The notes beneath the pieces are model-generated. The model was given only the letters and a program-made list of their open reading frames with translations, was not told where the DNA came from and did not search any database. From an uncultured Gemmatimonadota bacterium (GTDB lineage Bacteria > Gemmatimonadota > Gemmatimonadetes > Palauibacterales > Palauibacteraceae), in the NCBI GenBank assembly GCA_964499635.1, contig CAZCLY010000013.1, forward strand, positions 62,329 through 126,328: 64,000 nt of DNA, given 5' to 3'. The position numbers and the translations under genes are program-made. This document shows positions 38,663 through 56,678 of this stretch, piece after piece. How positions within the stretch are numbered: the stretch's first letter is position 1; each line of letters begins with the position of its first letter.

Positions 38663-39802
38663 GTGCGCACACGACCGCCAGCGTGGCCCGACCGCATCGA
38701 GTCCGTGCTGTCGGTCGTCGGTGCGCGTCCGAATTTCATGAAGCTCGCCCCGGTCGCCCGGGAGCTCGCCCGCCGTCCCGACGTCGGGCACGTGATTCTC
38801 CACACCGGCCAGCACTACGATCGGGAGATGTCGGACGACTTCTTCACCGATCTCGGCATCCCCGAGCCCCACGAGAACCTCGAGGTGGGGTCCGGAAGCC
38901 ACGCGCGCCAGACGGCAGCCATCCTCGAGCGTTTCGAGGCGTTCGTGGCGAGCGACCGACCCGACGTGGTTCTGGTGTACGGCGATGTCAACTCGACGCT
39001 CGCCGCCGCGCTGGTGTGCGCGAAGGCAGGGATCCCGGTGGCGCACGTCGAGGCCGGTCTCAGGAGCGCCGACTGGTCCATGCCGGAGGAGATCAACCGG
39101 ATCGTGACCGATCGTCTCTCGAGCCTCCTCCTCCTGCCATCCCGCGATGCCGCGGACAACCTGCGGGCCGAGGGAGTTCCGTCCGAGCGTCTCGAGTTCG
39201 TCGGAAACGTGATGATCGATTCGCTCGTGCGCGCCTTGCCGGCGGCCCGGGAGCGCGACGCGGCCGCCGGGCTGGGTGTGGAGCCGCGGGGGTACGTCGT
39301 CGTCACGCTCCACCGGCCGTCGAACGTCGACCGACCGGACCGGCTGAGGGCCATTCTGCGGGTCCTCGCGGAGCTGTCCCGTCGGCACCCGGTCCTCTTC
39401 CCGGCGCACCCGCGGACGCGCGATCGGATCGAGACGCTGGGGTGGAGCGTCCCCCCGGGGTGCGATCTCCGGCTCCTCGATCCGGCTCCCTATCTGAGCA
39501 TGTTGTCTCTCCTGGCCTCGTCGCGTCTGGTCATCACGGACTCCGGCGGGATCCAGGAGGAGACCAGTTTCCTCGGGATTCCGTGCGCCACCTTGCGGCC
39601 CAACACCGAGCGTCCGATCACGTGCACGGCGGGGACGAACACCTTGCTTCCGCCGGACGACCCCGGCCTGCTCGAGGCGTGCATCGAGCTGCTGGATGGA
39701 GGACCGACTGGAGACGCCGCGTGCGCGATCGAGCGCTGGGACGGGAGGACCGCCGGCCGCATCGTCGACGTCCTGTGCGATGGGGGGCATTATCCGGTCT
39801 GA
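38663..39802 (+). CDS. wecB: UDP-N-acetylglucosamine 2-epimerase (non-hydrolysing)
   Basis: Collinear with WecB/MnaA: VVGARPNFMKLAPV, HTGQHYD, DVVLVYGDVNSTLAAALVCAKAGIPVAHVEAGLRS, EE.NR, DSGGIQEE. First gene of the sugar cluster. Confidence 0.85.
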   Translation: MRTRPPAWPDRIESVLSVVGARPNFMKLAPVARELARRPDVGHVILHTGQHYDREMSDDFFTDLGIPEPHENLEVGSGSHARQTAAILERFEAFVASDRPDVVLVYGDVNSTLAAALVCAKAGIPVAHVEAGLRSADWSMPEEINRIVTDRLSSLLLLPSRDAADNLRAEGVPSERLEFVGNVMIDSLVRALPAARERDAAAGLGVEPRGYVVVTLHRPSNVDRPDRLRAILRVLAELSRRHPVLFPAHPRTRDRIETLGWSVPPGCDLRLLDPAPYLSMLSLLASSRLVITDSGGIQEETSFLGIPCATLRPNTERPITCTAGTNTLLPPDDPGLLEACIELLDGGPTGDAACAIERWDGRTAGRIVDVLCDGGHYPV

Positions 39803-39833
39803 GACGCCCGGCAGGGGAAGGAACGGTCTCGCA

Positions 39834-40844
39834 TTGAAGATCGTCCGGCTGGCGGTCGGCGTGGCCCTGTTCGGCTGGGTGCTCGCCAGGACCGATGCGC
39901 CCGAGGCCCTTGCCCGTCTGCTCGGAGCTCCCTGGGCCCTCGCGGCCATCGTCGCGATCCCGTTTCTGGGAGCCGCCATCGAGGCCATCAGATTGCACCT
40001 GCTGTTCGAGGCGCAGGGTCTCGACGTGTCGATCCCGTACGCGTATCGCATCGTGGCCATCGCGACGCTGTTCAACTTCACGCTCCCCGGCGGGACGGGC
40101 GGCGACGCGCTCAAGCTCTACTACCTGTGCGGGCGACACCGGGGCCGCGTGCTCGAGATCGGGACCACGCTGCTCGCCGATCGGATCATCGCGCTGTTCG
40201 CGTTCATCGTGGTCACGCTGGCGCTCGGTCTCGCCGTGCTGACGGAGGTGCTCGACATCCCGTCGATCCGGAGCCTGTACGTGTTTCTCGCGGCGGTAGG
40301 CGCCGCCCTCCTCCTCGGAGCGGCGTTCCTCGGTTCGGCCAGGCTGCGGCGCAGCGCTCTCTTGGAGCGGGGCCGGGGACGCTTCTTCCCGCCGGGGAGC
40401 CGTGTCGAGCGCGTGGGACGCGCCGTGGCGACCCTGGCGAGCAATCGCGCCGCGTCCGTGAAGGCCTGCGCGATCTCGGCCGTGGGGCACATCGCCCTGG
40501 CAGCCATGTTCGTCGTCGCGGGGGCGGTCATCCTCCCGGACGCCGGACCGATGACCGTGTGCTTTCTCTCCCTGCTCGGACTCCTGGCCAACGCGCTTCC
40601 GCTCACCCCTGGCGGGCTGGGGGTCGGCGAGGCCGCGTTCGACCGGCTGTTCGGACTGGCCGGCCATGCCGGGGGAGCCGCGCTCCTGCTCGCGTGGCGT
40701 GCCGCCATCATCCCGGTCGGGGCTCTCGGCATGTGGTGGTATGCGCGGGGAGCCGGGTCGGGTGGCGCCCTCCGACCGGATCAGGTTCCGGAACCCGGGA
40801 CCGCCCCACCACTGTCCCGCGACCTGCCCGGGGGTGCCGGGTGA
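39834..40844 (+). CDS. flippase-like membrane protein (lysyl-phosphatidylglycerol synthase TM-region family, UPF0104)
   Basis: TTG 39834, 7 nt after GGAAGGA. About 8 TM segments. Family phrases LLFEAQGLDVSIPYAYRIVAIATLFNFTLPGGTGGDALKLYYL and LANALPLTPGGLGVGEAAF. Confidence 0.6.
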   Translation: MKIVRLAVGVALFGWVLARTDAPEALARLLGAPWALAAIVAIPFLGAAIEAIRLHLLFEAQGLDVSIPYAYRIVAIATLFNFTLPGGTGGDALKLYYLCGRHRGRVLEIGTTLLADRIIALFAFIVVTLALGLAVLTEVLDIPSIRSLYVFLAAVGAALLLGAAFLGSARLRRSALLERGRGRFFPPGSRVERVGRAVATLASNRAASVKACAISAVGHIALAAMFVVAGAVILPDAGPMTVCFLSLLGLLANALPLTPGGLGVGEAAFDRLFGLAGHAGGAALLLAWRAAIIPVGALGMWWYARGAGSGGALRPDQVPEPGTAPPLSRDLPGGAG

Positions 40845-42022
40845 CCGTCCTCGCCGTGTCGGGGTACGGGCCCGGGGAGCGGGGGGTGTGGTCGGCCGGA
40901 CCGATCGGCGCGTACGAACGTGCCGGCGCGGCCGCCGTCGATGCGCCGTTCGCGTGCGCGTTCTCTCGGGCCCGGCATGCGCTGGTCGCGATCCTCCGGT
41001 CGCTCGACGTCACGGGACGAGTCGCCGTCTCGGGCCTCACGTGCTCGGTCGTGCCGATGGCCGTGATGCGGGCCGGTCTCCGCCCGGTGTACGTGGACAT
41101 CGATCGGCGGACGCTCAACATGTCCCCGGACGCCCTGTCGGCGATCGAGCCCTCTCCGGCGGTCGCCCTCTTCCAGCGCACGTACGGCAACGCGTCGGGG
41201 GCCGCGGAGGTGGCCGCCCGCGCCGGGGCCCTCGGCATACCGCTGGTGGAGGATCGCGCACAGGACGTCCCCCTGTCGAACGGGGAGGCCGCGCTCGGCA
41301 GCCACCCGATCGCGGCGCTGTTCTCGAACGACCTGTTGAAGCCCGTACCGGCCGGGGCAGGAGGGTTGGCGGTCACGACCGACCGGGCGCTCGCGAAGCG
41401 GGTGGCGGCGTGGCGCGATCGGGCGCCTGCCGCCGGGCCGCTGGCGCGAGTCGCCATCCGGGCGCGGGCCCTCGGAACCGCGACGCTCCTTCACCCGAAC
41501 ACGTACTGGACGCTGCTCGGCGTGCACGACATGATCGTCCGAGGCGCACGACCGGCCACGATCGATGAAGCGCTCGAGCGCGAGTTCGGAGAGCCCCGCA
41601 CGCTCTCCGCCTGGGAAGCCCGGCGTGGTCTCTCCTGGATGCGCCGGGCAGAGGAGGTCGCGGCGCACCGGACGGCCCGCTCCATCGAGTACGCCGACGG
41701 CCTTGCCGGGCTCACGCGGTGCGAGATGCTCCCATGGCCGGCGGCACGACCGTACTACCTGTTCCCGGTCCTGGTCGACGACAAGGCCGCGTTGCTCGAC
41801 GAGGCCCGCCGTCGCCGCCTCGAGCTGGTCGACTGGCCGGGCTCGACGCCCCTGTACGGCGTGAGGCGCGCGAAGGAACTGGCCATCTACGGATACCAGC
41901 CGGGGTGCTGTCCGAACGCCGAAGCGGTCGCCACGCGCCTCGTCGGGCTCCCCACCCACCCGCGGGTCGGGCCGGACACGAGCCGGCGCCTGCTGGAGCT
42001 CCTGCGAGATCGATATGAATAG
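40841..42022 (+). CDS. DegT/DnrJ/EryC1/StrS-family (sugar aminotransferase-like) protein
   Basis: GTG 40841 overlaps the upstream stop (GTGA). Fold-type I order conserved: RPVYVDIDRRTLNMSPDALSAIEPSPAVALFQRTYGNASGAAEVAARAGALGIPLVEDRAQ, then FSNDLLKPVPAGAGGLAVT with a candidate PLP lysine. Divergent from canonical DegT. Confidence 0.6.
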   Translation: MTVLAVSGYGPGERGVWSAGPIGAYERAGAAAVDAPFACAFSRARHALVAILRSLDVTGRVAVSGLTCSVVPMAVMRAGLRPVYVDIDRRTLNMSPDALSAIEPSPAVALFQRTYGNASGAAEVAARAGALGIPLVEDRAQDVPLSNGEAALGSHPIAALFSNDLLKPVPAGAGGLAVTTDRALAKRVAAWRDRAPAAGPLARVAIRARALGTATLLHPNTYWTLLGVHDMIVRGARPATIDEALEREFGEPRTLSAWEARRGLSWMRRAEEVAAHRTARSIEYADGLAGLTRCEMLPWPAARPYYLFPVLVDDKAALLDEARRRRLELVDWPGSTPLYGVRRAKELAIYGYQPGCCPNAEAVATRLVGLPTHPRVGPDTSRRLLELLRDRYE

Positions 42023-42073
42023 GATGCCCCCCGTATCGACGGGACCCCGTTCCCTGCCGGTTCAGGCGAAGGC

Positions 42074-42832
42074 GTGATGGCCGTTTCCACGCAAGAGAAG
42101 CGATCCGAGAAGGCCTTCTACGACGACCTGTTCGGCCGCCGTCAGCGGTTCGATCAGTTCCAGATGGAGATCTACGAGCGGATCGCACACACGGCGGCCG
42201 ACGGAGCGCCGGGGCGCCGGACGATCGAGCTGGGGTGCGGCTCGGGCTCACAGGCTATCTGCCTCGCCCGGTGCGGGATGCAGACCCTGGCGACCGACCT
42301 GTCCATCGAGGGCTGTCGTGTCGCGAGAGCCACCGTCGAGGGGGAGGGCCTCTCGATCGCGATCCTGAACGCCGATGCGGAACACCTGCCCGTCTCGGAT
42401 CGAGTGTTCGACGCCTGCATCTGCGGGTTGCTTCTGCACCATTTCGCGGACTTCTCGCGGGTCGCCGACGAGATCGCCCGTGTCCTCCGGCCCGGCGGGG
42501 TCGTGGTCGCGCTCGATGCCAACGCCCACAACCCCGCGCAGTGGGTGTTCATGAACGTCCTGCACCGTCTGAAACGGAATCCGCGTCTCACCCCCAACCA
42601 GCGGGCGTTGTGGAAGCGGGAGCTGGTGTCCGTATTCGGCGCGCGGGGCTTCGAGGGATTCCAGTTCGAATCGGTGAAGAGCGAGCTCAGGAAGGACTGG
42701 CTGGGCGATTCTCCGGGCGCGTGGCTCAACTACCACACGCGGAAGCTCGTCCTCGGACTCACCGACCTGGTCCTGCCCCCCATCGCCCGGGGAAACCTGC
42801 TCCTGGCCGTGTTCCGCAAGTCCGACCCGTGA
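42074..42832 (+). CDS. class I SAM-dependent methyltransferase
   Basis: Motif I IELGCGSGSQA. Motif post-I ATDLS. LLLHHFAD motif II region. Confidence 0.8.
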   Translation: MMAVSTQEKRSEKAFYDDLFGRRQRFDQFQMEIYERIAHTAADGAPGRRTIELGCGSGSQAICLARCGMQTLATDLSIEGCRVARATVEGEGLSIAILNADAEHLPVSDRVFDACICGLLLHHFADFSRVADEIARVLRPGGVVVALDANAHNPAQWVFMNVLHRLKRNPRLTPNQRALWKRELVSVFGARGFEGFQFESVKSELRKDWLGDSPGAWLNYHTRKLVLGLTDLVLPPIARGNLLLAVFRKSDP

Positions 42833-42857
42833 CCCGTGACCCGGTCGATCGCTCTCG

Positions 42858-43922
42858 ATGCTGACCGTCGAGCGCCTGTCCGAATCATCCCCGGGCGAAC
42901 CGGCGGAGCTGTGGGATGCCTATATCGCGGGCAACCGGGATGCCGACCTGTATCACACGAGGGAATGGGCGGCGCTCATCCGGGAGGTGTTCGGGCACCG
43001 GCCCCACTACCTCCTCGCCCGGCGTGGCTCCCGCCCGGTCGGCGTGCTGGCCATATTCGAGATCCGGCTTCCGCTGCTCGGGCGAAAGCTGGTGTCGATG
43101 CCGTACGATGCGGGATCCGGAGGACCGCTCGCCGACGACCCGGAGGCGGAACGGGCCCTCGCCGGGCACGCACTCGCGCTCGCGAAAGAGCTGCGCGCGC
43201 GCTCGCTCGAGCTCAGGTGCGGCCACGACCGTCCCTCCCTGGAGAGCATGTCGTTCCACGTCGATCACCCGATCATGTTGTCGGAGACGTGCCTCGAGGC
43301 TGGGTCCGAGGCGTGGGAGCGGGTCGCCCCGGATCAGCGGAAATCCCTCTCGAAGGCGGAGCGGCGGGGCGTGCGCGTCAGGTTGGCCGATGATCCGGCG
43401 GACTATGATGCGTTCTACGAGGTCTATCTGCGCGTGTTCCGGGATTTCGGAACGCCGCCGTACGCGCGGCGCTACTTCGTGGCGGTGTCGAGGTCGCTCG
43501 TCCCGCACGCCAGGGCGCAGCTGCTGCTGGCGGAGCGCGAAGGCGCCGTCATCGGCGGAGCGCTGCTGTTCTGCTTCGGTTCCACGGCGATCAGCAAGTT
43601 CGCCGTGGTGCTACCCGACGCGGTCGAGTACCGGACATTCTCCGCCCTGTACGGAAAGACGCTCGACATCTGTATCGAGCGCGGATTCCGGAAGGTCGGA
43701 TGGGGCACCTCCTCCCGAACGCAGACCGGGCTGATCGACTTCAAGGAGCGGTGGGGGGCCGAGACCCGTCCGGTCACTATCTACACGCGCACGAGGTCGG
43801 GTCGGCCGGTCTCGCTCGAGAAGTATTACGACTCCGATCCTCTGGCGCGGAAGCTCTGGCGCCGCCTTCCCGTCCGCCTGACGCCGGTGCCGGGCCACAC
43901 GTTGAACCGCTGGTTCTGCTGA
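42858..43922 (+). CDS. FemAB-like / Acetyltransf_6 (GNAT-fold) family protein of the exopolysaccharide-locus-associated type
   Basis: About 350 aa. Profile typical of FemAB-related proteins found in EPS loci (WAALIREVFGHRPHYLLARRGSRPVGVLAIFEIR...; C-terminal LLAEREGAVIGGALLFCFGSTAISKFAVVLPD..FSALYGKTLDICIERGFRKVGWGTS). Confidence 0.7.
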   Translation: MLTVERLSESSPGEPAELWDAYIAGNRDADLYHTREWAALIREVFGHRPHYLLARRGSRPVGVLAIFEIRLPLLGRKLVSMPYDAGSGGPLADDPEAERALAGHALALAKELRARSLELRCGHDRPSLESMSFHVDHPIMLSETCLEAGSEAWERVAPDQRKSLSKAERRGVRVRLADDPADYDAFYEVYLRVFRDFGTPPYARRYFVAVSRSLVPHARAQLLLAEREGAVIGGALLFCFGSTAISKFAVVLPDAVEYRTFSALYGKTLDICIERGFRKVGWGTSSRTQTGLIDFKERWGAETRPVTIYTRTRSGRPVSLEKYYDSDPLARKLWRRLPVRLTPVPGHTLNRWFC

Positions 43923-43939
43923 GTGGAGCGTACCCTGGC

Positions 43940-44806
43940 ATGATGCCGGAGGACCGTCCACCCGGGACCGTTCACATCGACCTCGACGGCGCGAAGCATA
44001 TCTTCGCGGCCCACGGGTGGGAGTATCCCCTCGACCGCGACGACCTCTTCCTCTCCGGGCTCGAAGCGGCGCTCGACTTCCTGGGGCGCGCCCGGGTGTG
44101 CGCGACCTTTTTCGTGATCGCGGAGGATCTCGGGGATCCGGCCAAGCGGGAGGCGCTCGGCGAGGTCGTCGCGTGCGGTCACGAGCTCGGGTCCCACGGC
44201 TGGAGTCACCGACGGCTGAGCGGATTGGGAGCCGCGGAGCTGGATCGCGAGATCGCGGACAGCCGCAAGGCGATCGAGGACGGGCTCGGCGTCTCCGTGA
44301 GGGGCTTCAGGGCCCCCGGATTCGACCTCGATCGAGCGGTCCTCGAGCGCATCGCGGAGGCCGGATACGCGTACGATTCGTCGTTGCATCCATCCCGCGG
44401 TGGGGCCCGCCGGCTCGGTGTCGACCGCATCCCGGCCCACCCGCATCGTCCCCTCGCCGGGCCCCTCCTCGAGCTCCCGCTGCCGGGGCACGGCGGGCTG
44501 CCGCTCCCCTTCCACCCCAGCTACGCCCTGGTGCTCGGCAAGTGGTATTTCGGCACCGGGTTACGACGCTTCGCGCGGCAGCGGGCACCGCTGGTTCTCC
44601 TGTTCCACCTCACCGATTTCGCACGACCGCTGTCGGAGGGTATCCGCGGTCCCGCGCAGCGGCTGTTCACCATCTCGCATCGATCGCAGCCGGACAAGCT
44701 CGACTCTTGCAGTGGCATGCTGAATCTCGCGCGCGAGCGCTTCCGCCTGGTAGCGACCAGCGAGATCTTGGCGCACCTCTCCGGGGGGGAAGAGGCGTAC
44801 CCGTGA
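43940..44806 (+). CDS. polysaccharide deacetylase-family protein (NodB homology domain)
   Basis: NodB motifs: ATFFVIA (TFDDG-like region replaced), HELGSHGWSH, RGFRAPG. Double ATG at 43940/43943. Confidence 0.8.
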   Translation: MMPEDRPPGTVHIDLDGAKHIFAAHGWEYPLDRDDLFLSGLEAALDFLGRARVCATFFVIAEDLGDPAKREALGEVVACGHELGSHGWSHRRLSGLGAAELDREIADSRKAIEDGLGVSVRGFRAPGFDLDRAVLERIAEAGYAYDSSLHPSRGGARRLGVDRIPAHPHRPLAGPLLELPLPGHGGLPLPFHPSYALVLGKWYFGTGLRRFARQRAPLVLLFHLTDFARPLSEGIRGPAQRLFTISHRSQPDKLDSCSGMLNLARERFRLVATSEILAHLSGGEEAYP

Positions 44807-46992
44807 AAGCCGTCATCCAGGACCTCGCGAACGGCGAGGTCCGGGTCGAAGAGGTCCCGCCTCCGCAGCTGCACCCCGGGGGCGTCCTCGTCCGCACCCG
44901 CCGGTCGCTGATCAGCCTGGGGACGGAGCGTGCCGTCATGTCCCTGGCCGGCAAGGGACCGATCGGCAAGGCCCGCGACCGGCCCGACCTCGCGCGCAAG
45001 GTCCTGAACAAGGCGAAGCAGGAAGGCTACTGGGGGACGTACAGAGTCGTGCGCAACCTGCTGGCCTCCCCCATTCCGCTCGGATACTCGTGCGCCGGGG
45101 AGGTCATCGCGGTCGGAGGCGAGGTCACGGAGCTGGTGGCCGGCGATCGAGTCGCGTGCGCCGGGCTCAACTTCGCGAACCACGCCGAGGTCAACTACAT
45201 CCCCCGCAACCTCGTCGTGAAGCTCCCCGCCGATCTCGACTACGATGCGGCTTCGTTCGTGACCGTGGGGACGATCGCCATGCACGGGGTTCGGCTGGCC
45301 GACCTGGCGCTCGGCGATGTGGTCGTCGTGATCGGGCTCGGGCTGGTCGGGCAGCTGGCGGCGCAGCTGGCGCGCGCCGGGGGCGCGACGGTCATCGCCA
45401 CCGACCTCGATCCGGACAAGTGCGAGCTCGCCCTCCGACTGGGGGCCCATCGGGCAAGCGCCGATCCCGGTCGGGTGCAGGAGCTGGTGCACGGCATGAC
45501 CGACGGCCACGGCGCGGACGCGGTGCTCGTGTGTGCCGCCGCCGAGTCCTCCGCGCCGCTGCGACAGGCCGTGAAGCTGTCGCGGATCCGCGGCCGCGTC
45601 GTCCTGGTGGGCGATGTCGGCATGGACCTGGAGCGTCGCCCCCTGTTCGAGAAGGAGGTGCGGCTGGTCGTGAGCCGCTCGTACGGCCCGGGACGCTACG
45701 ATCCCGCCTACGAGGTGCGCGGGGACGACTATCCGTACGAATACGTCCGGTGGACGGAGCGGCGGAACATGCAGGCGTTCATCGACCTGCTGGCGCGTGG
45801 CGACGTCGAGGTCGCCCCCCTGATCACGCACCGGTACGAGATCGACGCGGCCGAGAACGCCTACCGGACTGTGAAGGGGGCCGATGAAGACCCTCCCATC
45901 GGCATTCTGCTCCAATATCCGGGGGAGGAGGGGCGAACACGGGTCGTCCTCTCCGGGGGTCGCCCCGCCGCGCCCCCCGGGACGATTCGCCTCGGCGTGA
46001 TCGGCGCCGGACAATTCGCCAAGGGGGTGCTGCTTCCCGCCTTCGCGCGCTCGAACGACGTCCGGTTCGAGGGCTTCAGCACGGCCTCGGGCATCACCAG
46101 CCGGCGGGTGGCCGAACGGTTCGGGGCCGCGTTCTGTACATCGGATCCCGCGGAGATCATCGGGCACGACGCGATCGACGCGGTCGTGATCGCGACGCGC
46201 CACGACCGGCACGCGGGGCTGGCGATGGAAGCGCTGAGGTCGGGCAAGGCGGTGTTCGTCGAGAAGCCACTCGCGCTGGACGAGGACTCGCTCGCGGAGC
46301 TGTCCGAGGTGCTCGGGTCCTGCGAGAACCCGCGGCTCATGGTGGGCTTCAATCGCCGCTTCTCTCCACTGGCCGTCCGCTGCCGGGACTTCTTCCAGCC
46401 ACGGACCCGTCCCCTGAACGTCTCGTATCGGGTGAACGCGGGCGCCGTCGAACGGGGAAGCTGGGTCCTCGACCCGGTCGAGGGTGGGGGACGGATCATC
46501 GGCGAGGGGTGCCACTTCGTGGACCTGGTCTGCTACCTGACCGGCTCCATACCCGAACGCGTATCGGCGGCGAAGACGTCCGGCGGACGGGAGGCGGACC
46601 TGGATCCGGATGGCATCGCGATCACTCTGCGGATGGCCGACGGATCGGTGGGCGTCATCCACTATGCGGCGAACGGTGACCCGAGCCTGCCCAAGGAATA
46701 TTGCGAGGTGTTCGGAGGCGGACGCGTCGCCATCCTCGACAACTATCGCCGGGCCACTTTCCACGCCGGCAATCGGGCGAGGAAGAAGCGTCTGTGGAAT
46801 CAGGCGAAGGGTCATGCCGAGGAGGTGGAGGCGTTCTTGCGCGCGCTCCTGCGCGCCGAGCCCATGCCGATCGATCCGGGGACGCTGATCGCGGTGACCC
46901 AAACGACGTTCCTCGTCCACGAGAGCCTCGAAACGGGGCGCACGGTGGAGTATCGGTCGCCCCTCCGGCACTCCGCGCGAGGAGACGCTTGA
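44803..46992 (+). CDS. bi-domain oxidoreductase: N-terminal zinc-type MDR alcohol-dehydrogenase-like domain fused to a C-terminal Gfo/Idh/MocA NAD(P)-binding oxidoreductase domain
   Basis: GTG 44803 overlaps the upstream stop. MDR half: GYSCAGEVIAVG, VIGLGLVGQLAAQLARAGGATVIATD. Gfo/Idh/MocA half: IRLGVIGAGQFAKGVLLPAF, AVVIATRHDRHAGLAMEALRSGKAVFVEKP, GFNRRF. 729 aa. Confidence 0.8.
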   Translation: MKAVIQDLANGEVRVEEVPPPQLHPGGVLVRTRRSLISLGTERAVMSLAGKGPIGKARDRPDLARKVLNKAKQEGYWGTYRVVRNLLASPIPLGYSCAGEVIAVGGEVTELVAGDRVACAGLNFANHAEVNYIPRNLVVKLPADLDYDAASFVTVGTIAMHGVRLADLALGDVVVVIGLGLVGQLAAQLARAGGATVIATDLDPDKCELALRLGAHRASADPGRVQELVHGMTDGHGADAVLVCAAAESSAPLRQAVKLSRIRGRVVLVGDVGMDLERRPLFEKEVRLVVSRSYGPGRYDPAYEVRGDDYPYEYVRWTERRNMQAFIDLLARGDVEVAPLITHRYEIDAAENAYRTVKGADEDPPIGILLQYPGEEGRTRVVLSGGRPAAPPGTIRLGVIGAGQFAKGVLLPAFARSNDVRFEGFSTASGITSRRVAERFGAAFCTSDPAEIIGHDAIDAVVIATRHDRHAGLAMEALRSGKAVFVEKPLALDEDSLAELSEVLGSCENPRLMVGFNRRFSPLAVRCRDFFQPRTRPLNVSYRVNAGAVERGSWVLDPVEGGGRIIGEGCHFVDLVCYLTGSIPERVSAAKTSGGREADLDPDGIAITLRMADGSVGVIHYAANGDPSLPKEYCEVFGGGRVAILDNYRRATFHAGNRARKKRLWNQAKGHAEEVEAFLRALLRAEPMPIDPGTLIAVTQTTFLVHESLETGRTVEYRSPLRHSARGDA

Positions 46993-47015
46993 GCGCGGTC
47001 GACTGTGCGGCCCGC

Positions 47016-48656
47016 ATGTACTGGGATGCGATTCGGACCGAGGCTCCACGAGTCCTCGGCCTCATGGACCGGGAGGGCATGAGCCCGACTGCCGGTTGCT
47101 GCGACCGGAACTACTGGGCCTGGAAGTTCGTCGACTTTCCGGGCGCAAGGTTCCAGGAGTCGCTGTGCGCGCTGGCGTTCGTGTGGAGCGAGTCCGCGCC
47201 CGACAGCCCGTTCCGGGGGAGCCCGACGCTTCTGGAGTGGATCCACCTCGGCCTGGAGTTCTGGTGCGGCCTGCAACACCGCGACGGCAGCTTCGACGAG
47301 GCGTATCCGTTCGAGCGCTCGCTGGCCGCGACCGCCTTCACCACCTTCTACGTTTCGGAGGCGGTCGAGATGCTGGGGGACGCGATCCGCGACCACACCC
47401 GGGAGCGGGTCGTCGAAACCGTGCACGACGCCGGGCGGTGGCTGCTCGCCAACGACGAGTCGCACGGCGTGCTCTCGAACCACCTCGCGGCGGCCGCCGC
47501 GGCTCTCGCGCACGCCCACCGGCTCACCGGAGTGCGGGCGCTCGGGGACCGCAGTCGGTACTTCCTCGGCCTCATCCTGTCCCGTCAGTCCGACGAGGGG
47601 TGGTACGAGGAATACGGCGGGGCGGACCCCGGCTACCAGACGCACGGCAGCTTCTATCTGGCGCGCTGTCTCGAACTGGCGCCCGACGAGAACCTACGGC
47701 GGAGTCTGTATCGATCGGTGGACTTCATCGCCCACTTCGTGCACCCCGATCGCAGTCTGGGCGGCGAATACGCCAGCCGGAACACCAAGACCTACTATCC
47801 GGCCGCCTTCGAGATGCTGGCCGCCGAGCACGAGGGAGCGGCCTGGATCGCCGGACACATGCGGCCGGGTGTGGCGGTGGGCGCCGCGGCGAGCCTGCGC
47901 GGCATCGATGCATACAACTACTTCCCGTTCCTCAACAACTATGTGTTCGCGCTGCGAGCCTGCGCCGAGCGCGATGGGGATGGAGGGATGGCGCGGGATC
48001 CGACCCCCGGGAGCGGCTGCACGCGCTTTCCGGATGCCGGCCTCCTGAGGGTCCGGCGACCGAGCTACGAGCTGTTCATGGGGACGACCAAGGGCGGCGT
48101 GCTGAAAGTGTTCGACCGGTCGACCGGAGAGCTCCTGCTCTCCGACTGCGGGTACGTGGGCCGGCTGTCCGACGGGCGGCTGTGCTCGAGCCAGTACCTC
48201 GACCCCCGGCGGCCCGTCGAGACGCGCGATGACGAGGTCATCGTGGAAGGCTCCTTCATGGAGCTCGGTCGCCCCGCGATGACCCCCGCACGGTTCATCG
48301 GCTTCCGCCTGTTCAGCCTGACCGTGGGACGGGTTCCCCCTGTGGGGCGCTGGCTCAAGAGACTCCTGGTCCGTGTCCTCATCCACCGCAAGCGGCCGAT
48401 TCCGCTGCGCTTCGAGCGTCGCGTTCGGTTCGCGGAGGGCATCGTGGAAGTGGAGGATCGCATCGGGGGACCGGGGCTGGCGCGTCTCGAGAGATTGGAG
48501 TGGGCCCCGCTGCTGACCACGATCCACATGGGCTCTGCCCGCTACTACGTGGCCAACGAGCTCGCGAGCGGCGCGGAGCGCTCCATCGACCTGCGCGAGC
48601 TCGCGACGGGGGCTCCGCTGCGCCGCTCCGCCCGCCCCGTTCGCGCGGACGCCTGA
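47016..48656 (+). CDS. conserved hypothetical protein (547 aa), possibly an alpha/alpha-toroid polysaccharide-modifying enzyme (heparinase II/III-like)
   Basis: ATG 47016; an alternative TTG at 46989 overlaps the upstream stop. Protein-like throughout (WIHLGLEFWCGLQHRDGSFDEAYPFERS, DEGWYEEYGGADPGYQTHGSFYLARCLE). No family confidently recognised. Family assignment is a guess from neighbourhood and size. Confidence 0.5.
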   Translation: MYWDAIRTEAPRVLGLMDREGMSPTAGCCDRNYWAWKFVDFPGARFQESLCALAFVWSESAPDSPFRGSPTLLEWIHLGLEFWCGLQHRDGSFDEAYPFERSLAATAFTTFYVSEAVEMLGDAIRDHTRERVVETVHDAGRWLLANDESHGVLSNHLAAAAAALAHAHRLTGVRALGDRSRYFLGLILSRQSDEGWYEEYGGADPGYQTHGSFYLARCLELAPDENLRRSLYRSVDFIAHFVHPDRSLGGEYASRNTKTYYPAAFEMLAAEHEGAAWIAGHMRPGVAVGAAASLRGIDAYNYFPFLNNYVFALRACAERDGDGGMARDPTPGSGCTRFPDAGLLRVRRPSYELFMGTTKGGVLKVFDRSTGELLLSDCGYVGRLSDGRLCSSQYLDPRRPVETRDDEVIVEGSFMELGRPAMTPARFIGFRLFSLTVGRVPPVGRWLKRLLVRVLIHRKRPIPLRFERRVRFAEGIVEVEDRIGGPGLARLERLEWAPLLTTIHMGSARYYVANELASGAERSIDLRELATGAPLRRSARPVRADA

Positions 48657-48657
48657 T

Positions 48658-50589
48658 ATGTGCGGCATCTGCGGGTACGTGGGAATCCACGAGCCGGGGC
48701 TGCTTCGATCGATGACCGAGGCGATCGCGCACCGGGGTCCGGACGGGCAGGGGTGCTTCGCGGAGGAGGCCATCGGGCTCGGTCACCGGAGGCTGAGCAT
48801 CATCGACGTGGCGGGCGGTCAACAGCCGATCTTCAACGAGGATCGTTCGGTGGTGTTGATCGCGAACGGCGAGATCTACAACCACCGGGAGCTCCGTTCC
48901 GAGCTCGAAGCGAAAGGCCACCGCTTCCGCTCGCGGTCCGACTCGGAAGTTCTGGTCCACCTGTACGAGGAGGAGGGCCCGGAAGGCGTGCGGCGGTTGG
49001 GCGGGATGTACGCCTACGCCATCTACGATACGCGGGATCGCTCGCTGTTCCTCGCGCGCGATCGACTCGGCATCAAGCCCCTGTACTACGCGGACCTCCC
49101 GGGCGGCCGGTTCCTGTTCGCGTCGGAGAGCAAGTCGATTCTCCGCTACGGGGGACTCCGGCCGACCCTCGACCCCCGCGCCGTGCACGACTACCTGGCG
49201 CTGCGATACGTGCCCGGGCCGGGAGGGATGATCGCCGAGATCCGCAAGCTCCCGGCCGCGCATTGGGCGCGATACCGCGATGGACGCCTGGAGCTCAGGC
49301 GCTATTGGCAGCCCGAGCTGTACGAGGGCCCGTTCCCGTACCGGGACGAGGAGTACCTCGAAGGTTTCGCGCAGCGCTTCGAGATGAGCGTAGAGCGACG
49401 TCTGATGTCGGAGGTGCCCTTCGGCGCCTACCTGAGTGGCGGGCTCGACTCGAGCGTCATCGTCGCCGCCATGGCGGCGCGCGTCTCGACCCCGGTCCGC
49501 ACGTTCGCCGTCGGGTTCGACTATGCGCACGACGAGCTCGCGGCGGCGTCCGAGACCGCCCGCCTGCTGGGGTGCGAGCACACCGAGATCGCCTGCACGA
49601 TCGACGACATCGAGCTGCTCCCCGACCTCGTGTACCATCTGGACGAGCCGCTCGGCGATCCCATCGTGATCCCCATGCACCGCCTCGCGCGGACGGCCAA
49701 GAGCCACGTCACCGTGATCCAGGCCGGGGAGGGAGCGGACGAGATCCTCGGCGGCTATCTGTTCCACAAGGCCCTGTTGGGTGGCTGCCGACTGAATCGG
49801 GCCGTGCCCGGCTTCATTCGCCGCGGCCTGCTCGGCCCAGCGCTGCGGGCGACCCCGGCCCGCGTCCTGAACCTCGCGTTCAGCTACCCGGCGGCGTTGG
49901 GTGGGCGCGGCAAGCAGAAGCTGCTGGACTACCTCGATCTCACGGGTGCCGACCGGCTTCCGGAGGCGTATCGGCACCTGATCTCGCTGTTCGACGCGCG
50001 CGATGTCGAGGCGCTCTACGCGAACGAGTTCGAGCGGGCCCTCGGCGATGCACCGCCACACGAACTCGCGTCGCCCGACGGTGCGGCCCCGTACCTGAAC
50101 CGCATCCTGCACCTCCAGTTCGCGCACTGGCTCCCGGACGACATCCTCATGAAGCAGGACAAGATGTCGATGGCCAGCGGCGTCGAGGTGCGGGTTCCCT
50201 TCCTCGACCACGAGCTCGTCGAGTACGTGCTTCGCGTCCCCCCGCGCCTCAAGATCCGGGGTCTGACGTCGAAGCACCTGCTGCGCCGCTACGCGTCGCG
50301 AGTCCTCCCCGATCGGATCGTTCGGCGCCGCAAGATGCCGTTCTATCTCCCGCTCGAGAAGTACGCCCGACACCCGACCTTCCTGGCGTTCGTGGACGAG
50401 ACGCTCTCGGAGAAGACGGTGAGGGAGCGGGGGCTGTTCCGGCCGGCCGGGGTGCAGGCTCTCCGTGACCGGGCCGTGGGCGGAGAGTTCGTGTACGTCA
50501 AGCAGCTCTTCAGCCTGGTGGTGCTCGAGCTGTGGATGCGGGGGGTGTTCGACCGGTCGGGCCGGACGGGCGCGAGGCGAGCGGGATGA
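48658..50589 (+). CDS. asnB: asparagine synthetase B-type glutamine amidotransferase
   Basis: N-terminal MCGICG nucleophile Cys. GATase-2 domain. SGGLDSS PP-loop. 643 aa. Starts 1 nt after the upstream stop. Confidence 0.9.
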   Translation: MCGICGYVGIHEPGLLRSMTEAIAHRGPDGQGCFAEEAIGLGHRRLSIIDVAGGQQPIFNEDRSVVLIANGEIYNHRELRSELEAKGHRFRSRSDSEVLVHLYEEEGPEGVRRLGGMYAYAIYDTRDRSLFLARDRLGIKPLYYADLPGGRFLFASESKSILRYGGLRPTLDPRAVHDYLALRYVPGPGGMIAEIRKLPAAHWARYRDGRLELRRYWQPELYEGPFPYRDEEYLEGFAQRFEMSVERRLMSEVPFGAYLSGGLDSSVIVAAMAARVSTPVRTFAVGFDYAHDELAAASETARLLGCEHTEIACTIDDIELLPDLVYHLDEPLGDPIVIPMHRLARTAKSHVTVIQAGEGADEILGGYLFHKALLGGCRLNRAVPGFIRRGLLGPALRATPARVLNLAFSYPAALGGRGKQKLLDYLDLTGADRLPEAYRHLISLFDARDVEALYANEFERALGDAPPHELASPDGAAPYLNRILHLQFAHWLPDDILMKQDKMSMASGVEVRVPFLDHELVEYVLRVPPRLKIRGLTSKHLLRRYASRVLPDRIVRRRKMPFYLPLEKYARHPTFLAFVDETLSEKTVRERGLFRPAGVQALRDRAVGGEFVYVKQLFSLVVLELWMRGVFDRSGRTGARRAG

Positions 50590-52322
50590 GTGCGCCGGCG
50601 CTTACGCGGCCGCGCGGGCCGCTCGTCGGGCTCGCCCTGGGGGCGTTCGCGTGCTACGCGCCGGGCTTCTGGTGGGGGGCGCCGCACGCCACGTCTGCGG
50701 ACAGGGTCCGGCCCTGGGGTGTCGACGACGAGACCCCGCTCGGCACGCTCGGACAGGTCGCGGACATCGTCGCGCCGCGACCCCGCCGCAATGCCGGCTA
50801 CCCGAAGATGCACGCGCTCATGTCGACCGCCGCGATGGCCCCCTACATCGTGTGGAGCCGGGCGACGGGTCGGATGTCGGGGTTCGACGACGAGTACCCG
50901 TTCGGGTTCGCCGACCCGGTGACCGGGATCGAACGGCTCTCGAACGTCGCGCACCTGCTCTCCGTCCTGCTGGGCGTGGGGATCGTGCTGGCCGCGTTCG
51001 ATGTGGGGCGTGTGCTGTGGACACCGGGGACCGGCGTCCTGTCGGCATCGTTCGCTGCGGTGGTCTTCCCGATGTTCTACTACGCCCGCACCGGCAACGT
51101 GGACGTGCCGATGTTGTTCTTCATAGCCCTGGCCCTGTCCGCCTATGTCCGGGCGTTGCGCGGTGGGGTCACTGCGCGCCGCGCGGTGTGGGCGGGGATC
51201 TGGATCGGGCTTGCGGTCGCGACGAAGGAATCCGCGTTCGGCGCCGTGGCCCCCATCCCGCTCGTCATGGCGTGGATCGCGGTCCGGAATCCCGCCGAGG
51301 CCGCGCCCGACGGCATCCGGAAGCCGCTCTTGTGGGGTGGCCTCGCGTGCGTCCTCGCCTACGGTCTCGGCAGCGGGCTGTTCCTGGATCCGGGCTGGTA
51401 CATCGATCACGTCCGATTCCTGCTGGCCCGGACCGCCACCGTGGCCCGGGAGGGCGAGGGGGTCGTTCGGAGCTACCCACGTACCTTGTCCGGCGACCTC
51501 GCCTACCTGGGTGCGGGGGGTCGGTATCTGGTCTCCGCCATGAACCCCGTGATCTTCGGGCTGGGGGCGGTCGGGGTGGCGCTGGGGCTTCGCGAGCGTC
51601 GCACGCGACTGCTGCTGATCCCGGCGTTGGGATACGCGATCTTCATGTTCCTCACGGTCCGCACGCTTCAGCTCCGCTACGTGCTGCCATTCGCGTACGT
51701 GCTCGCGATCCTCGCCGGCGGGGCGGTGGCATCCGCGTGGCGCTCCGATCGCGCGTGGCTGCGAATAAGCGCCATCGCGGCGGCCACCACCGGTCTGGGG
51801 ATCGGGCTCCTGTGGGGTGGCGAGCTCACGTACGAGATGGTGCGTGACTCCCGGAACGACGCGGCCCGATGGCTGGCCGCGAGGACCGAGAGCGGGGACC
51901 GGGTCGCCTACTTCGGGCCCATCCAGAAGCTGCCGCCCCTCGAGCGCGGTGTCGTCTCCGACCAGTCCGCTCCCTTTGAGGGGATGTGGGCCACGCGTCC
52001 GGATGACGCCGTCGCGCCGAGGAAGATCCTGGATCACTGGGAGCGAACGCGGCCCGCCTTCGTCATCGTCATGCCGGACCACGTCAGCTATCCGGGCGTG
52101 CCACACAACATCACGCTGCCGCCCGAGCTCTTCGACGCCCTCGAGGCGGGCGCCACGCCCTTCCGGCCGGTCGCCCGATTCCGGACGGAGCCGCTCCTTC
52201 CGTGGACGGGCATGCCGGCGCTCGACTACCCGACCGTCAATCCGACGATTCGGATCTACGAGCGAGTCGATGGAGCGGCGCGAGCCCACGGAGGGGACCG
52301 GCCACCCGGGGGTGGACGTTGA
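50586..52322 (+). CDS. glycosyltransferase family 39-like (GT-C fold, PMT/ArnT-type polyprenyl-phosphate-sugar-dependent transferase)
   Basis: ATG overlaps the asnB stop (ATGA). 10+ TM segments. N-terminal periplasmic-loop DE-type motif region (GVDDETPLG). Large hydrophilic C-terminal domain. Layout typical of GT39/GT83. Confidence 0.75.
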   Translation: MSAPALTRPRGPLVGLALGAFACYAPGFWWGAPHATSADRVRPWGVDDETPLGTLGQVADIVAPRPRRNAGYPKMHALMSTAAMAPYIVWSRATGRMSGFDDEYPFGFADPVTGIERLSNVAHLLSVLLGVGIVLAAFDVGRVLWTPGTGVLSASFAAVVFPMFYYARTGNVDVPMLFFIALALSAYVRALRGGVTARRAVWAGIWIGLAVATKESAFGAVAPIPLVMAWIAVRNPAEAAPDGIRKPLLWGGLACVLAYGLGSGLFLDPGWYIDHVRFLLARTATVAREGEGVVRSYPRTLSGDLAYLGAGGRYLVSAMNPVIFGLGAVGVALGLRERRTRLLLIPALGYAIFMFLTVRTLQLRYVLPFAYVLAILAGGAVASAWRSDRAWLRISAIAAATTGLGIGLLWGGELTYEMVRDSRNDAARWLAARTESGDRVAYFGPIQKLPPLERGVVSDQSAPFEGMWATRPDDAVAPRKILDHWERTRPAFVIVMPDHVSYPGVPHNITLPPELFDALEAGATPFRPVARFRTEPLLPWTGMPALDYPTVNPTIRIYERVDGAARAHGGDRPPGGGR

Positions 52323-52381
52323 CCAGAACGACTTCGGACGATCCGAGGGCGGGTCGCGAAGCGACGGAGAGACGTAGAGAG

Positions 52382-53461
52382 ATGAGCATGAGAACCAATC
52401 CCGTGGTAGACATTCCGGGGCCCATGGCGACCCCCGGCGAAGCGGCCGTGGACGTGTCCGTCGTGTGCCCCTTCTACAATGAGGAGAAGATCCTCGAGTC
52501 CGCGGTGCGGCGACTGTTGGCACGTCTGGAAGCGATGGAGGAGTCGTGGGAGCTGCTCATTGTCAACGACGGCTCGACGGACGGTTCGGGCGAGATCGCG
52601 GCGCGGCTCGCTGCGGGGCACGAACGCCTCCGATGTGTGGGATACACGACCAACCGCGGGCGCGGGTACGCGCTCAGAACGGGAATCGGGGCGGCCCGGG
52701 GAGCCGTCGTGATCACCACCGAGATCGATCTCTCCTGGGGCGAGGACATCGTCGAGCGGCTCCTCGCCGCAATGAACGAGTGGCCCGATGCCGACATCGT
52801 CGTCGCGAGTCCGCATCTGCCGGGCGGCGGGTACAGGAACGTGCCCGGCAAGCGGGTCTTCCTGAGCAGGTTCGGGAATCACGTGATCCGGGCCTGCATG
52901 TCGCAGGCCGTCACGATGAACACGGGTATGACGCGCGCGTACCGACGCGGAGTGATCCGCTCGCTGCCCCTTCGCGAGGATCGCAAGCAGTTTCATCTCG
53001 AGGTCCTGCTCAAGGCGACCGCGCTCGGCTACCGCGTACGCGAGATCCCCACGGTCCTCGAGTGGCTGGAGTACAAGCATGAGGGTCGGCGGGTGAAGCG
53101 GAAGAGCGCGTCGCAGCTCCGACCGGTCATCAAGTCGCACACCCTGTTCAGCCTGTTCGCCGAGCCGCTGCGGTACGTGTGGGCCATGAGCCTGGCCGCG
53201 TTGTTCGTCGGCATGACCTCGCTGGTGTGGGCGATCGTGCTCACGGCCCAGGGCGAGGTGTCCGTGTACATGGCCCTGCTGAGCGTGCTGATGGTCATCC
53301 TGTCGATCGTGCTGTTCGTGCTCGGCGTGGTCCTCCAGCAGGGGAACGCGATCCAGCGGGAGCTGTGGATGACCCAGCGCCAGCTCAACCGCCTGCCGGG
53401 GATGTCGGAGGCGGACGAGCGCGTGCGGGACGCCTCTCCCCCGCCGCCCCCCCGGGCGTGA
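52382..53461 (+). CDS. glycosyltransferase family 2 (polyprenyl-phosphate sugar synthase type, DPM1/ArnC/GtrB-like) with C-terminal TM helices
   Basis: GT-A signature VSVVCPFYNEE, LLIVNDGSTDGS, DxD-like ITTEIDLS. Two C-terminal TM helices (LAALFVGMTSLVWAIVL, ALLSVLMVILSIVLFVLGVVL). GGAGAG RBS. Confidence 0.85.
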   Translation: MSMRTNPVVDIPGPMATPGEAAVDVSVVCPFYNEEKILESAVRRLLARLEAMEESWELLIVNDGSTDGSGEIAARLAAGHERLRCVGYTTNRGRGYALRTGIGAARGAVVITTEIDLSWGEDIVERLLAAMNEWPDADIVVASPHLPGGGYRNVPGKRVFLSRFGNHVIRACMSQAVTMNTGMTRAYRRGVIRSLPLREDRKQFHLEVLLKATALGYRVREIPTVLEWLEYKHEGRRVKRKSASQLRPVIKSHTLFSLFAEPLRYVWAMSLAALFVGMTSLVWAIVLTAQGEVSVYMALLSVLMVILSIVLFVLGVVLQQGNAIQRELWMTQRQLNRLPGMSEADERVRDASPPPPPRA

Positions 53462-53497: not shown

Positions 53498-53860
53498 CTA
53501 CGGCGGCTCCGGGACGAACAGCGGCCGCACCGCCACGTACCACCCGAGCTCCTCGCCCATGCGGCCGGCGGGGTGGAGGGACGCGAGCTCGACCGCCTCC
53601 TCCAGGTCGTCGGCCTCGACGACGAACACGCCACCGATCTCCTTCGACTCGATGAACGGCCCGTCGGTGATCAGGCGCTCTCCGCCCCGGCTGCGCACGA
53701 TCCTGCCGCCTCCCGCGAGGCCCGCGTACAGCTGCACGCGCTCGTCGGCCGCGAGCTCCTCGTCGTACGCGCGGCAGCGATCCATGTAGACCTGCCGCTC
53801 CTCCTCGGTCAGCTTCTCCCACGCCGATCCGTCCCCACAGGCCAGGCACAGGTACTTCAT
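53498..53860 (-). CDS. YCII-related domain protein
   Basis: ATG 53860 after GGAGGAGG; overlaps the stop of the upstream VOC gene (ATGA). Profile MKYLCLACGDGSAWEKLTEEERQVYMDRCRAYDEEL...LITDGPF.E.KE..GG....EA.DL.EA.E.A...P. The 60 upstream codons of the track ORF are not protein-like. Confidence 0.75.
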   Translation of the reverse strand: MKYLCLACGDGSAWEKLTEEERQVYMDRCRAYDEELAADERVQLYAGLAGGGRIVRSRGGERLITDGPFIESKEIGGVFVVEADDLEEAVELASLHPAGRMGEELGWYVAVRPLFVPEPP

Positions 53861-54276: not shown

Positions 54277-54494
54277 GGCTCGTCTCCCGTGGTTCCGGAT
54301 GTGGATACGGGCCGGCGGAGGGACGGCGTGTGGCCCGCCGCCGACGTTCTTCACTCCATGGTCGAGCGGAGGGAGACGGATTCGACAGCCGGCACTCGGC
54401 CGCCGGGCAGCTAGATGCGAAGGGCCTCGTATCTCCGGCGTCGCGACCCCACCCGCGCCGCGTCGGAGGGGGCGCGCCGTCTACGGGACCGGAG

Positions 54495-54860: not shown

Positions 54861-54873
54861 CGGGTCTCCTCGA

Positions 54874-56232: not shown

Positions 56233-56289
56233 GGCGTGTTTCCCTGGGTGTGCGGAACGACCGCTCGCGGAAGGTGGCGGGTGTCCCGA

Positions 56290-56631: not shown

Positions 56632-56678
56632 CTCCGGTCCGACGGCCTCGGGAACACGGCCGCGGGAGTGTGGACCAC

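Follow-up and report, generated by a model that had tools for sequence, protein, structure and literature searches.

The window analysed here, a stretch of 64,000 nucleotides from an uncultured Gemmatimonadota bacterium (GenBank contig CAZCLY010000013.1), contains an operon of 11 co-directional genes located at positions 38738–53461, in which neighbouring genes either overlap or are separated by no more than 59 bp. The eighth gene of the operon (hereafter, the target) encodes a conserved hypothetical protein and adjoins the genes of a bi-domain oxidoreductase upstream and of an AsnB-type glutamine amidotransferase downstream. This position had been proposed in a first-pass annotation, made by a model from the letters of the window, and both flanking genes were confirmed by their Pfam domains. 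The target gene is real; its product is a cytoplasmic protein with a two-domain fold of the lyase/DS-epi1 type (DS-epi1, dermatan-sulfate epimerase 1). The gene forms a conserved part of a lipid-carrier sugar-modification cassette, in tight linkage with a carboxylate-amidating enzyme. Most likely, the protein tailors the sugar that this cassette builds for the cell envelope. The features of the locus are listed in Table 1.

The frame of the target is open over positions 46701–48656 and is coding-like only from about 47016, as judged by the guanine and cytosine (GC) content at the three codon positions. This content is 0.69, 0.51 and 0.88 for 47016–48656, values usual for genes of this 70% GC window, and 0.82, 0.69 and 0.53 for 46701–47015 in the same frame; the latter segment is the tail of the upstream gene, read in another frame. 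A chance open reading frame (ORF) was rejected on codon statistics and conservation, in agreement with the first description of the frame as protein-like and rich in GC at the third codon position (GC3). The length of 547 aa given in that description counted the stop codon: the frame is correct, and the product starting at the ATG at 47016 has 546 aa. An alternative TTG start at 46989, noticed before as overlapping the upstream stop codon, is also real, is preceded by an AGGAG sequence and would give 555 aa. In an alignment with 42 homologues, a conserved N-terminal helix with the consensus Y-x-x-A-I-L-x-x-A-P-R-V-L-S-L-M-D-R-E starts at residue 2 of the window protein. Since about 10 residues precede this helix in most homologues, both the TTG at 46989 and the ATG at 47016 fit. 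The public gene call (P0001, 530 aa) begins at the ATG at 47064 and loses the conserved helix, which is modelled with a predicted local distance difference test score (pLDDT) of about 90. The ATG at 47016, or the TTG at 46989 with its AGGAG, is a better start than 47064.

Table 1. Genes of the operon and features of the target gene, in window positions.
Feature	Positions	Strand	Basis
Gene 1, WecB-type non-hydrolysing UDP-GlcNAc 2-epimerase	38738..39802	+	TIGR00236, 277.7 bits, above the 210 cutoff
Gene 2, LPG_synthase_TM / flippase-like polytopic membrane protein	39780..40844	+	Domain match, hydropathy
Gene 3, DegT/DnrJ/EryC1 sugar aminotransferase	40841..42022	+	Domain match
Gene 4, class I S-adenosylmethionine (SAM) methyltransferase	42077..42832	+	Domain match
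Gene 5, FemAB-like GNAT, VimA-like	42858..43922	+	TIGR03019, below its cutoff
Gene 6, carbohydrate esterase family 4 (CE4) polysaccharide deacetylase, ArnD/LgmC/VimE-like	43940..44806	+	Domain match
Gene 7, bi-domain oxidoreductase, 729 aa	44803..46992	+	Pfam, NCBIfam: N-terminal ADH_zinc_N (medium-chain dehydrogenase/reductase, MDR), C-terminal GFO_IDH_MocA
Possible translational-coupling junction: AGGAG 46980-46984, TTG 46989-46991, upstream TGA stop 46990-46992	46980..46992	+	Sequence reading
Gene 8, target, 546-aa conserved hypothetical protein	47016..48656	+	GC3 0.88; 791 homologues; N-terminal alignment in favour of 47016 or an earlier start
Target, N-terminal (α/α)6 toroid, residues 1-318, twelve helices	47016..47969	+	AlphaFold2 model; conserved motifs in long loops before even-numbered helices
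Target, Asn155-His156, candidate carboxylate neutraliser and acid/base pair	47478..47483	+	Invariant in both subfamilies
Target, Tyr207, candidate catalytic Tyr, N-terminus of even-numbered helix 205-221	47634..47636	+	Invariant in both subfamilies; role inferred
Target, His243-x-Asp245	47742..47750	+	Invariant in both subfamilies
Target, C-terminal β-sandwich, residues 334-540, helical insert 424-456	48015..48635	+	AlphaFold2 model, alignments; holds His504 (48525-48527)
Gene 9, AsnB-type glutamine amidotransferase	48658..50589	+	Closest family XrtA/PEP-CTERM amidotransferase TIGR03108
Gene 10, PMT_2 / ArnT-like membrane glycosyltransferase of the GT-C class	50586..52322	+	Pfam PMT_2, 2e-10; several transmembrane-like segments
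Gene 11, glycosyltransferase of family 2 (GT2), polyprenyl-phosphate type (ArnC/GtrB/PgfS-like)	52382..53461	+	NCBIfam; transmembrane-like segments 266-325

The target belongs to a large and very widespread protein family that is under very strong constraint. The 791 homologues were found by a word-indexed search at E ≤ 1e-3 and are full-length; 2,357 representative clusters fall within the same threshold, 1,047 of them at E ≤ 1e-30. The mean column identity is 59% over 43 aligned sequences from several phyla, and long invariant motifs are present (DGSFDEAYPxERSLAA, ExHGxLSNHLAAAA, QSxEGWYxEYxxxDPGYQTHGxFY, HxDxSxGGEYxSRNTxTYYPA and TIHMGSxRY). Two peptides quoted in the first-pass annotation lie within the most conserved of these motifs. 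Members occur in Acidobacteriota, Gemmatimonadota, Planctomycetota, Myxococcota-type deltaproteobacteria, Nitrospirales, Alpha- and Gammaproteobacteria and Omnitrophota, and the cultured carriers include Bradyrhizobium, Phyllobacterium and Caenibius. A homologue with 56% identity was also found in a metagenome-assembled genome labelled as ‘uncultured Halobacteria archaeon’ (L066, CAVYIJ010000014.1), where the neighbours (DegT, CE4, AsnB and LPG_synthase_TM) are of bacterial type; this is either mis-binning or lateral transfer.

All database names in the family read “hypothetical protein”, and a cluster look-up of the exact protein returned no name. The sole family label on the target is a precomputed match to PF25840 (Ulvan_lyase_N, the N-terminal domain of polysaccharide lyase (PL) family 40), which is weak on this protein and unmarked (E ≤ 1e-5) on two homologues. 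The local copy of Pfam-A never reported PF25840, even on strongly matching homologues, and the model is apparently missing from that library. Weak matches to the thioester domain (TED) of complement C4 and to histones were dismissed as chance or as mere generic toroid repeats. The target was thus placed in no unrelated well-characterised family, and the ORF is conserved in relatives, these being the two points on which its first interpretation could have failed. In the literature on bi-domain-containing oxidoreductases and on heparinase II/III together with asparagine synthase, no system of this composition was found described.

The AlphaFold2 model of the target, obtained with the family alignment as input, has a mean pLDDT of 83.5 and a predicted template modelling score (pTM) of 0.86. 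It features an N-terminal (α/α)6 toroid followed by a C-terminal β-sandwich, which is the architecture of uronate-specific polysaccharide lyases; the (α/α)6 toroid and β-supersandwich fold of the DS-epi1-type C5-epimerases is likewise present. Values of pLDDT below 50 are confined to residues 33–44, 96–99, 253–256 and 503–508 (positions 47112–47147, 47301–47312, 47772–47783 and 48522–48539), all of which coincide with invariant motifs; judging by the model, these segments are probably loops that become ordered only upon ligand or metal binding. A Foldseek search of the PDB with the whole model returned full-length matches with a probability of 1.0 and E values from 3e-8 to 5e-5, including PL15 alginate lyase Atu3025 (3e-8), human DS-epi1 (PDB 6hzn, 9e-8), PL8 chondroitin AC, hyaluronate and xanthan lyases (TMq, the query TM-score, up to 0.57) and representatives of PL17, PL33 and PL35. 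Glycoside hydrolase (GH) family 127, heparinases II and III and PL40 ulvan lyase were lower in the list. The alpha/alpha toroid suggested earlier, heparinase II/III-like or lyase/hydrolase-like, was therefore recovered in the AlphaFold2 model and in two independent fold searches. Membership in the heparinase II/III families did not hold at the sequence level: the target matches none of the Pfam models Hepar_II_III, Hepar_II_III_N, DUF4962 and Alginate_lyase. The target also does not show the combination that marks the superfamily of N-acylglucosamine 2-epimerases (AGE), namely a single-domain (α/α)6 barrel with catalytic His residues acting on free reducing sugars.

No signal-like or transmembrane (TM)-like segment was found in the target by hydropathy, the maximum 19-residue Kyte-Doolittle mean being 1.0. 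Hence, the protein is cytoplasmic, and a secreted degradative role is unlikely. Neither the secreted or periplasmic location nor the polysaccharide-degradation context expected of lyases was found. The target shares domain order and overall fold with the toroid and β-sandwich lyases (PL15 Atu3025, PL8, PL17, PL33, PL35, the PL12/PL21 heparinases, PL39 and PL40 Uly1040) and differs from them in being non-secreted, in standing outside a polysaccharide-utilisation context and in a likely substrate that has no glycosidic leaving group. In addition, the His-x-His/Mn2+ base of the β-domain of PL39 and PL40 is not evident in the target. DS-epi1 is 11% identical to the target, with no sequence-profile relationship; the human enzyme is lumenal, glycosylated and polymer-acting and carries an extra C-terminal domain, whereas the target, with its 546 aa, is bacterial and cytoplasmic and belongs to a monosaccharide-carrier pathway.

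A more distant branch of the family was reached through a plasmid search, which gave one unannotated homologue with 31% identity on a Phyllobacterium megaplasmid (the same search also gave short Streptomyces and Gemmatirosa matches). This sister subfamily yielded 1,814 matches in cultured Alphaproteobacteria, with Phyllobacterium, Caenibius, Antarcticirhabdus, Pararhizobium and Aureimonas among the genera. Two UniRef labels on its members (“Heparinase II/III-li…”, “Lanthionine synthe…”) were discarded as reflecting the toroid superfamily only. Residue invariance was judged on an alignment of the two subfamilies, which are 31% identical. About 45 positions are invariant across both, mostly polar or aromatic, and include D30, R31, W34, D40, Q47, D94, P98, E100, E148, N155, H156, E194, W196, E199, Y200, D204, Y207, H243, D245, R255, E266, R431, R468 and D481. 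Most of them map to loops that precede even-numbered toroid helices or to the N-termini of those helices. His156, Tyr200, Tyr207 and Tyr252 show complete or almost complete invariance, and His504 of the β-domain is conserved in the target subfamily only and lost in the sister subfamily. The five invariant Arg and three invariant Trp residues would suit an anionic sugar.

The arrangement of these residues offers a possible analogy with characterised toroid enzymes. The catalytic set of PL40 Uly1040 comprises Asn245-Trp/His246, Tyr305 and Asp358 (PMC12915356), and that of DS-epi1 comprises His205, Tyr261 and Tyr473 (PMC8006597). In the target, N155-H156, Y207 and then H243/D245 stand on successive repeats, which may recall the PL40 set, in the same order, and the DS-epi1 set.

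Gene context was compared over 80 loci from different species by tblastn with the window neighbours, and the counts are limited to those 48 loci in which the homologue is flanked by 8 kb or more on each side. In 40 of these 48 species, AsnB is found no more than 10 kb from the target, on the same strand in 39 and immediately downstream in 20. GT2 was found at this distance in 35 loci and the CE4 deacetylase in 25; the bi-domain oxidoreductase was found in 29, in 13 of them directly upstream of the target. AsnB, GT2 and the oxidoreductase occur jointly in 24 of the loci, and none of the three was found within 10 kb in five. The co-occurrence with AsnB and oxidoreductase genes, suggested as a check in the first-pass annotation, is thus borne out. 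A compact cassette in Nitratireductor consists of GT2, AsnB, oxidoreductase, methyltransferase, a 116-aa EamA-like protein resembling ArnE/F in size and family, the target and GT-C.

The sister subfamily resides in a fixed operon of GT2, the toroid protein, LPG_synthase_TM and a polytopic membrane protein of about 430–570 aa with no Pfam match (Phyllobacterium, Caenibius and Antarcticirhabdus). The genes are translationally coupled through overlapping start and stop codons (L087, 10973–15805; L092, 7983–13285; L093, 8010–13254), and neither AsnB nor the oxidoreductase was found in the loci annotated. Since the sister operon keeps the carrier-loading GT2 and the flippase-like protein and lacks the other two, the former pair can be regarded as the constant partners of the wider family. 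The sister operon looks like an uncharacterised stand-alone envelope glycosylation system.

In several proteins (P0148, P0178 in L089, P0213 in L090 and P0206), the target domain is fused to other domains. GNAT acetyltransferases are attached N- or C-terminally, and one of these fusions has a CE4 deacetylase after it; in another protein the target domain is joined to an amidohydrolase, with an ArnA-N-like formyltransferase before it. These fusions and neighbours link the target to N-acyl handling of an amino sugar. A further target domain is fused to a GH30C-like domain, and a GH30C-like protein is a separate neighbour in L014, L027, L031 and L090.

Some loci contain additional genes. In Bradyrhizobium (L077), the cassette of ManC, GT2, AsnB, oxidoreductase, methyltransferase and target is followed (11642–14181) by a 379-aa protein with a faint GDSL-like match and an MBOAT O-acyltransferase; the latter pair is reminiscent of polysaccharide O-acetylation of the AlgI/AlgJ type. 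One or two membrane-anchored genes of the sulfatase family (phospho-substituent transferases of the LtaS/EptA/OpgB type) stand beside the operon in L008 (3218–7162), L031 (4159–7895), L014, L021 and L026, suggesting that additional decoration of that envelope target is encoded alongside. In the loci without the bi-domain oxidoreductase that were checked, a local UDP-sugar 6-dehydrogenase was not found, and LtaS/EptA-like sulfatase-family genes were present instead.

Within the window operon, the best NCBIfam matches of the GT2 are ArnC, PgfS and Dol-P hexose transferase, and the protein ends in hydrophobic C-terminal TM-like segments (residues 266–325). Such segments at the end of a GT2 are characteristic of polyprenyl-phosphate monosaccharide synthases. 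The MDR domain of the oxidoreductase carries GYSCAGE (residues ~90–110) in the place of the GHE motif, which we take to be the zinc alcohol dehydrogenase motif expected at this site. Because GYS replaces GHE, the domain is probably devoid of catalytic zinc, and it may be a zinc-independent MDR (an ene-reductase or other) and not an alcohol dehydrogenase. It also matches quinone-oxidoreductase, acryloyl-CoA reductase and models containing the enoylreductase (ER) of polyketide synthases (PKS). A scan for an operon promoter and terminator gave results no better than shuffled sequence. The region upstream (35028–38416) holds a MacB/FtsX-type ATP-binding cassette (ABC) permease and a DUF6596 gene on the minus strand, and the region downstream (53498–57000) holds YCII, a glyoxalase-like gene, an extracytoplasmic function (ECF) sigma factor with DUF6596, PadR and a second MacB-type permease. 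Since the 11 genes are bracketed by unrelated genes, the cassette can be considered a discrete unit.

The operon combines parts of two known types of system. The Arn/Lgm logic consists of a GT2, a CE4 deacylase, a flippase and an ArnT-like GT-C, and among the Arn/Lgm/Gtr systems known to us there is none with a toroid/β-sandwich protein, AsnB or bi-domain oxidoreductase. The window operon shares with them the ArnC-like GT2, the ArnD/LgmC-like CE4, the flippase-like protein (EamA-like in Nitratireductor) and the ArnT/PMT_2 GT-C; the component set is present at the domain level only, with all equivalog scores below cutoff. With the Wbp/Vim system of Porphyromonas gingivalis and Tannerella forsythia, the operon shares WbpB-like GFO/IDH/MocA, WbpE-like DegT, WbpI-like Epimerase_2, VimE-like CE4, VimA-like FemAB GNAT (TIGR03019) and WbpS-like AsnB, all matches to the respective TIGR equivalogs being below their cutoffs. 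A WbpA-type UDP-GlcNAc 6-dehydrogenase and the WbpD acetyltransferase are missing from the operon, so the full enzyme set is not present. Conversely, no toroid protein, ArnC-like GT2 or GT-C transferase belongs to the Wbp/Vim system as described. In that system, VimE is a proposed deacetylase and VimA transfers Ser or Gly; formation of the linking sugar's uronamide form depends on PGN_1234/WbpS, of the AsnB family, and TIGR03108 has been linked to WbpS-like enzymes (PMC7468200).

Two further systems are of relevance. VpsJ of Vibrio cholerae is a proposed C5 epimerase of lipid-linked ManNAcA, acting before glycine amidation at the carboxylate, and its structural resemblances, loosely described, are to 2-epimerases as well as aspartate-semialdehyde dehydrogenases (PMC13463779). 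Compared by description only, VpsJ would follow the same logic of a WecB-type feed, C5 epimerisation on the carrier by an enzyme lacking informative sequence matches and then conversion of the carboxylate to an amide; VPS is a Wzx/Wzy polymer, in contrast to single-sugar transfer in the window system. In V. vulnificus, the heparinase-like protein VV0358 is needed for the capsule (PMC6037467).

From this material a pathway can be tentatively proposed. The operon would make a modified amino sugar or uronic sugar with the use of Wbp/Vim-like tailoring enzymes; the ArnC-like GT2 would load the sugar on polyprenyl phosphate, the LPG_synthase_TM-type protein would flip it, and the ArnT-like GT-C would transfer it to an envelope acceptor. 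Asn155-His156 of the target would bind the carboxylate of a carrier-linked hexuronate or amino-hexuronate, and Tyr207, assisted by further invariant residues (Tyr, His and Asp), would take off and return the C5 proton in a cofactor-independent manner. The outcome would be C5 epimerisation, from D- to L-hexuronate, and not chain cleavage. Epimerisation would be the most economical outcome, because a carrier-linked monosaccharide offers no 4-O-glycosidic leaving group. The adjoining WbpS-like AsnB would then amidate the carboxylate and so fix the product, and the gene order of oxidoreductase, target and AsnB fits the sequence of oxidation, epimerisation and amidation. That the target is the C5-epimerase of a carrier-linked hexuronate before amidation is a possibility we advance with caution, by analogy with the enzymes above, and it falls short of being probable. 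The earlier suggestion of a lyase-like scaffold repurposed for biosynthesis fits the absence of a signal peptide or TM segment, the biosynthetic operon and the linkage to AsnB and oxidoreductase across phyla. The broader proposal, that the target founds a cross-phylum family (more than 2,000 clusters at 50% identity, two subfamilies) of cofactor-independent cytoplasmic C5-epimerases acting on polyprenyl-phosphate- or UDP-linked hexuronates, as a bacterial monosaccharide-level counterpart of DS-epi1, is rather unlikely as it stands.

A number of observations weigh against C5 epimerisation of a uronate. The absence of an assignable motif, noted at the outset, was reproduced: nothing in Pfam matches the target at E ≤ 0.01 (at E ≤ 10, only DUF6461 at the chance level, E 0.14), NCBIfam gave no match at E ≤ 1, and searches of PDB sequences with phmmer and profile hmmsearch gave chance-level matches only, with no lyase among them. 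The TM-scores of the target to lyases are just 0.45–0.57 at 8–13% identity, and when the toroid is searched alone, AGE-type 2-epimerases, GH88 and terpene cyclases match as well as lyases. The matching of residues to lyases and to the epimerase relies on residue type and on one-repeat spacing, a spacing common to any toroid active site, and the β-domain base His of PL15, PL39 and PL40 has at best one counterpart in the target (H504), which the sister subfamily has lost. Neither the operon nor any of the four further loci checked contains a UDP-sugar 6-dehydrogenase, and for this reason the uronic-acid substrate is deduced from AsnB alone, the gene that the sister operon lacks. Five Planctomycetales loci (L036, L040, L042–L044) showed 0 of the 10 neighbour genes in the 80-locus scan; their homologues are 48–51% identical, with motifs intact and no signal peptide, and in L044 (2997–19640) the homologue stands among GH127-like, GH106-like, URO-D-like and HEAT-repeat genes with no cassette.

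The chief competing explanation is non-uronate chemistry on a carrier-linked or free sugar in the (α/α)6 pocket, as in the AGE/cellobiose 2-epimerases or GH88/GH127-type hydrolases. Such chemistry could be, for example, an epimerisation or isomerisation of a different kind, the editing by hydrolysis of a wrongly made polyprenyl-phosphate sugar, or N-acyl removal or transfer. We consider it somewhat doubtful: AGE-type chemistry requires a reducing sugar in free form, unlike the sugars linked to a carrier, the order of toroid and then β-sandwich together with the full-length Foldseek matches favours the lyase/DS-epi1 class, and the linkage to AsnB in 40 of the 48 species would be left unexplained. 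The same fold and residue evidence as for the epimerase would serve a 4,5-eliminase or dehydratase, in which removal of the C5 proton is followed by expulsion of the 4-OH, giving a 4-deoxy-4,5-unsaturated uronate whose double bond the MDR domain reduces before AsnB amidates the carboxylate. The substitution of GYS for GHE in that domain, its reductase-type matches and the location of the oxidoreductase gene immediately upstream, overlapping the possible start of the target, speak for it. Hydroxide is, however, a poor leaving group, the ene-reductase assignment is a speculation from missing zinc ligands, and the oxidoreductase is missing from the sister operon and from 19 of the 48 loci, where the unsaturated sugar would then be transferred as such. 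This elimination is accordingly judged improbable.

A degradative or chain-trimming lyase, similar to AlgL and acting on the acidic exopolysaccharide of the cell itself, would account for polysaccharide lyases being the best full-length structural matches and for Ulvan_lyase_N being the only Pfam label, and the Bradyrhizobium locus with MBOAT and ManC recalls alginate-type systems. It was nevertheless rejected on location and gene context as highly improbable, since the protein lacks both a signal peptide and TM segments, the operons are without polymerase, export or polysaccharide-utilisation genes, the GT2 is of the monosaccharide polyprenyl-phosphate type and the target is in no PL Pfam family by sequence. 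The protein might instead be a non-catalytic partner that, for instance, serves the membrane GT2 or the flippase as scaffold or activator, or acts as a chaperone of the substrate. Small partners stimulating polyprenyl-phosphate sugar synthases are known, and in the sister operon the gene is fixed beside the GT2 and flippase-like genes with overlapping start and stop codons. Against this, the approximately 45 invariant, mostly polar or aromatic residues cluster at the toroid loops across subfamilies only 31% identical, which is the signature of an active site and makes a purely structural role very hard to credit. The weight left over after these five readings was allotted to none.

The fold class is already known, as is the presence of lyase-fold proteins in biosynthetic loci (DS-epi1, VV0358). 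The novelty lies in a very large family, unnamed and spanning several phyla, that has a motif set of its own and is embedded in an Arn-like and Wbp/Vim-like carrier pathway. The family marks a conserved envelope-modification cassette, in which the Arn logic is joined to Wbp/Vim-type tailoring (amination, N-deacetylation, re-acylation and carboxylate amidation). If a lyase/DS-epi1 fold does epimerise C5 of a carrier-linked uronate here, it would supply the step making L-configured hexuronic acids or hexuronamides for the glycoconjugates of Arn-like GT2/flippase/GT-C systems, a step for which we know of no assignment. It would also provide a genetic handle on the origin of L-hexuronic acids and their amides in bacterial surface glycans and a further case of a degradative fold recruited into biosynthesis. 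Even with other chemistry, the gene is a clean genetic target in cultured carriers such as Bradyrhizobium and Caenibius.

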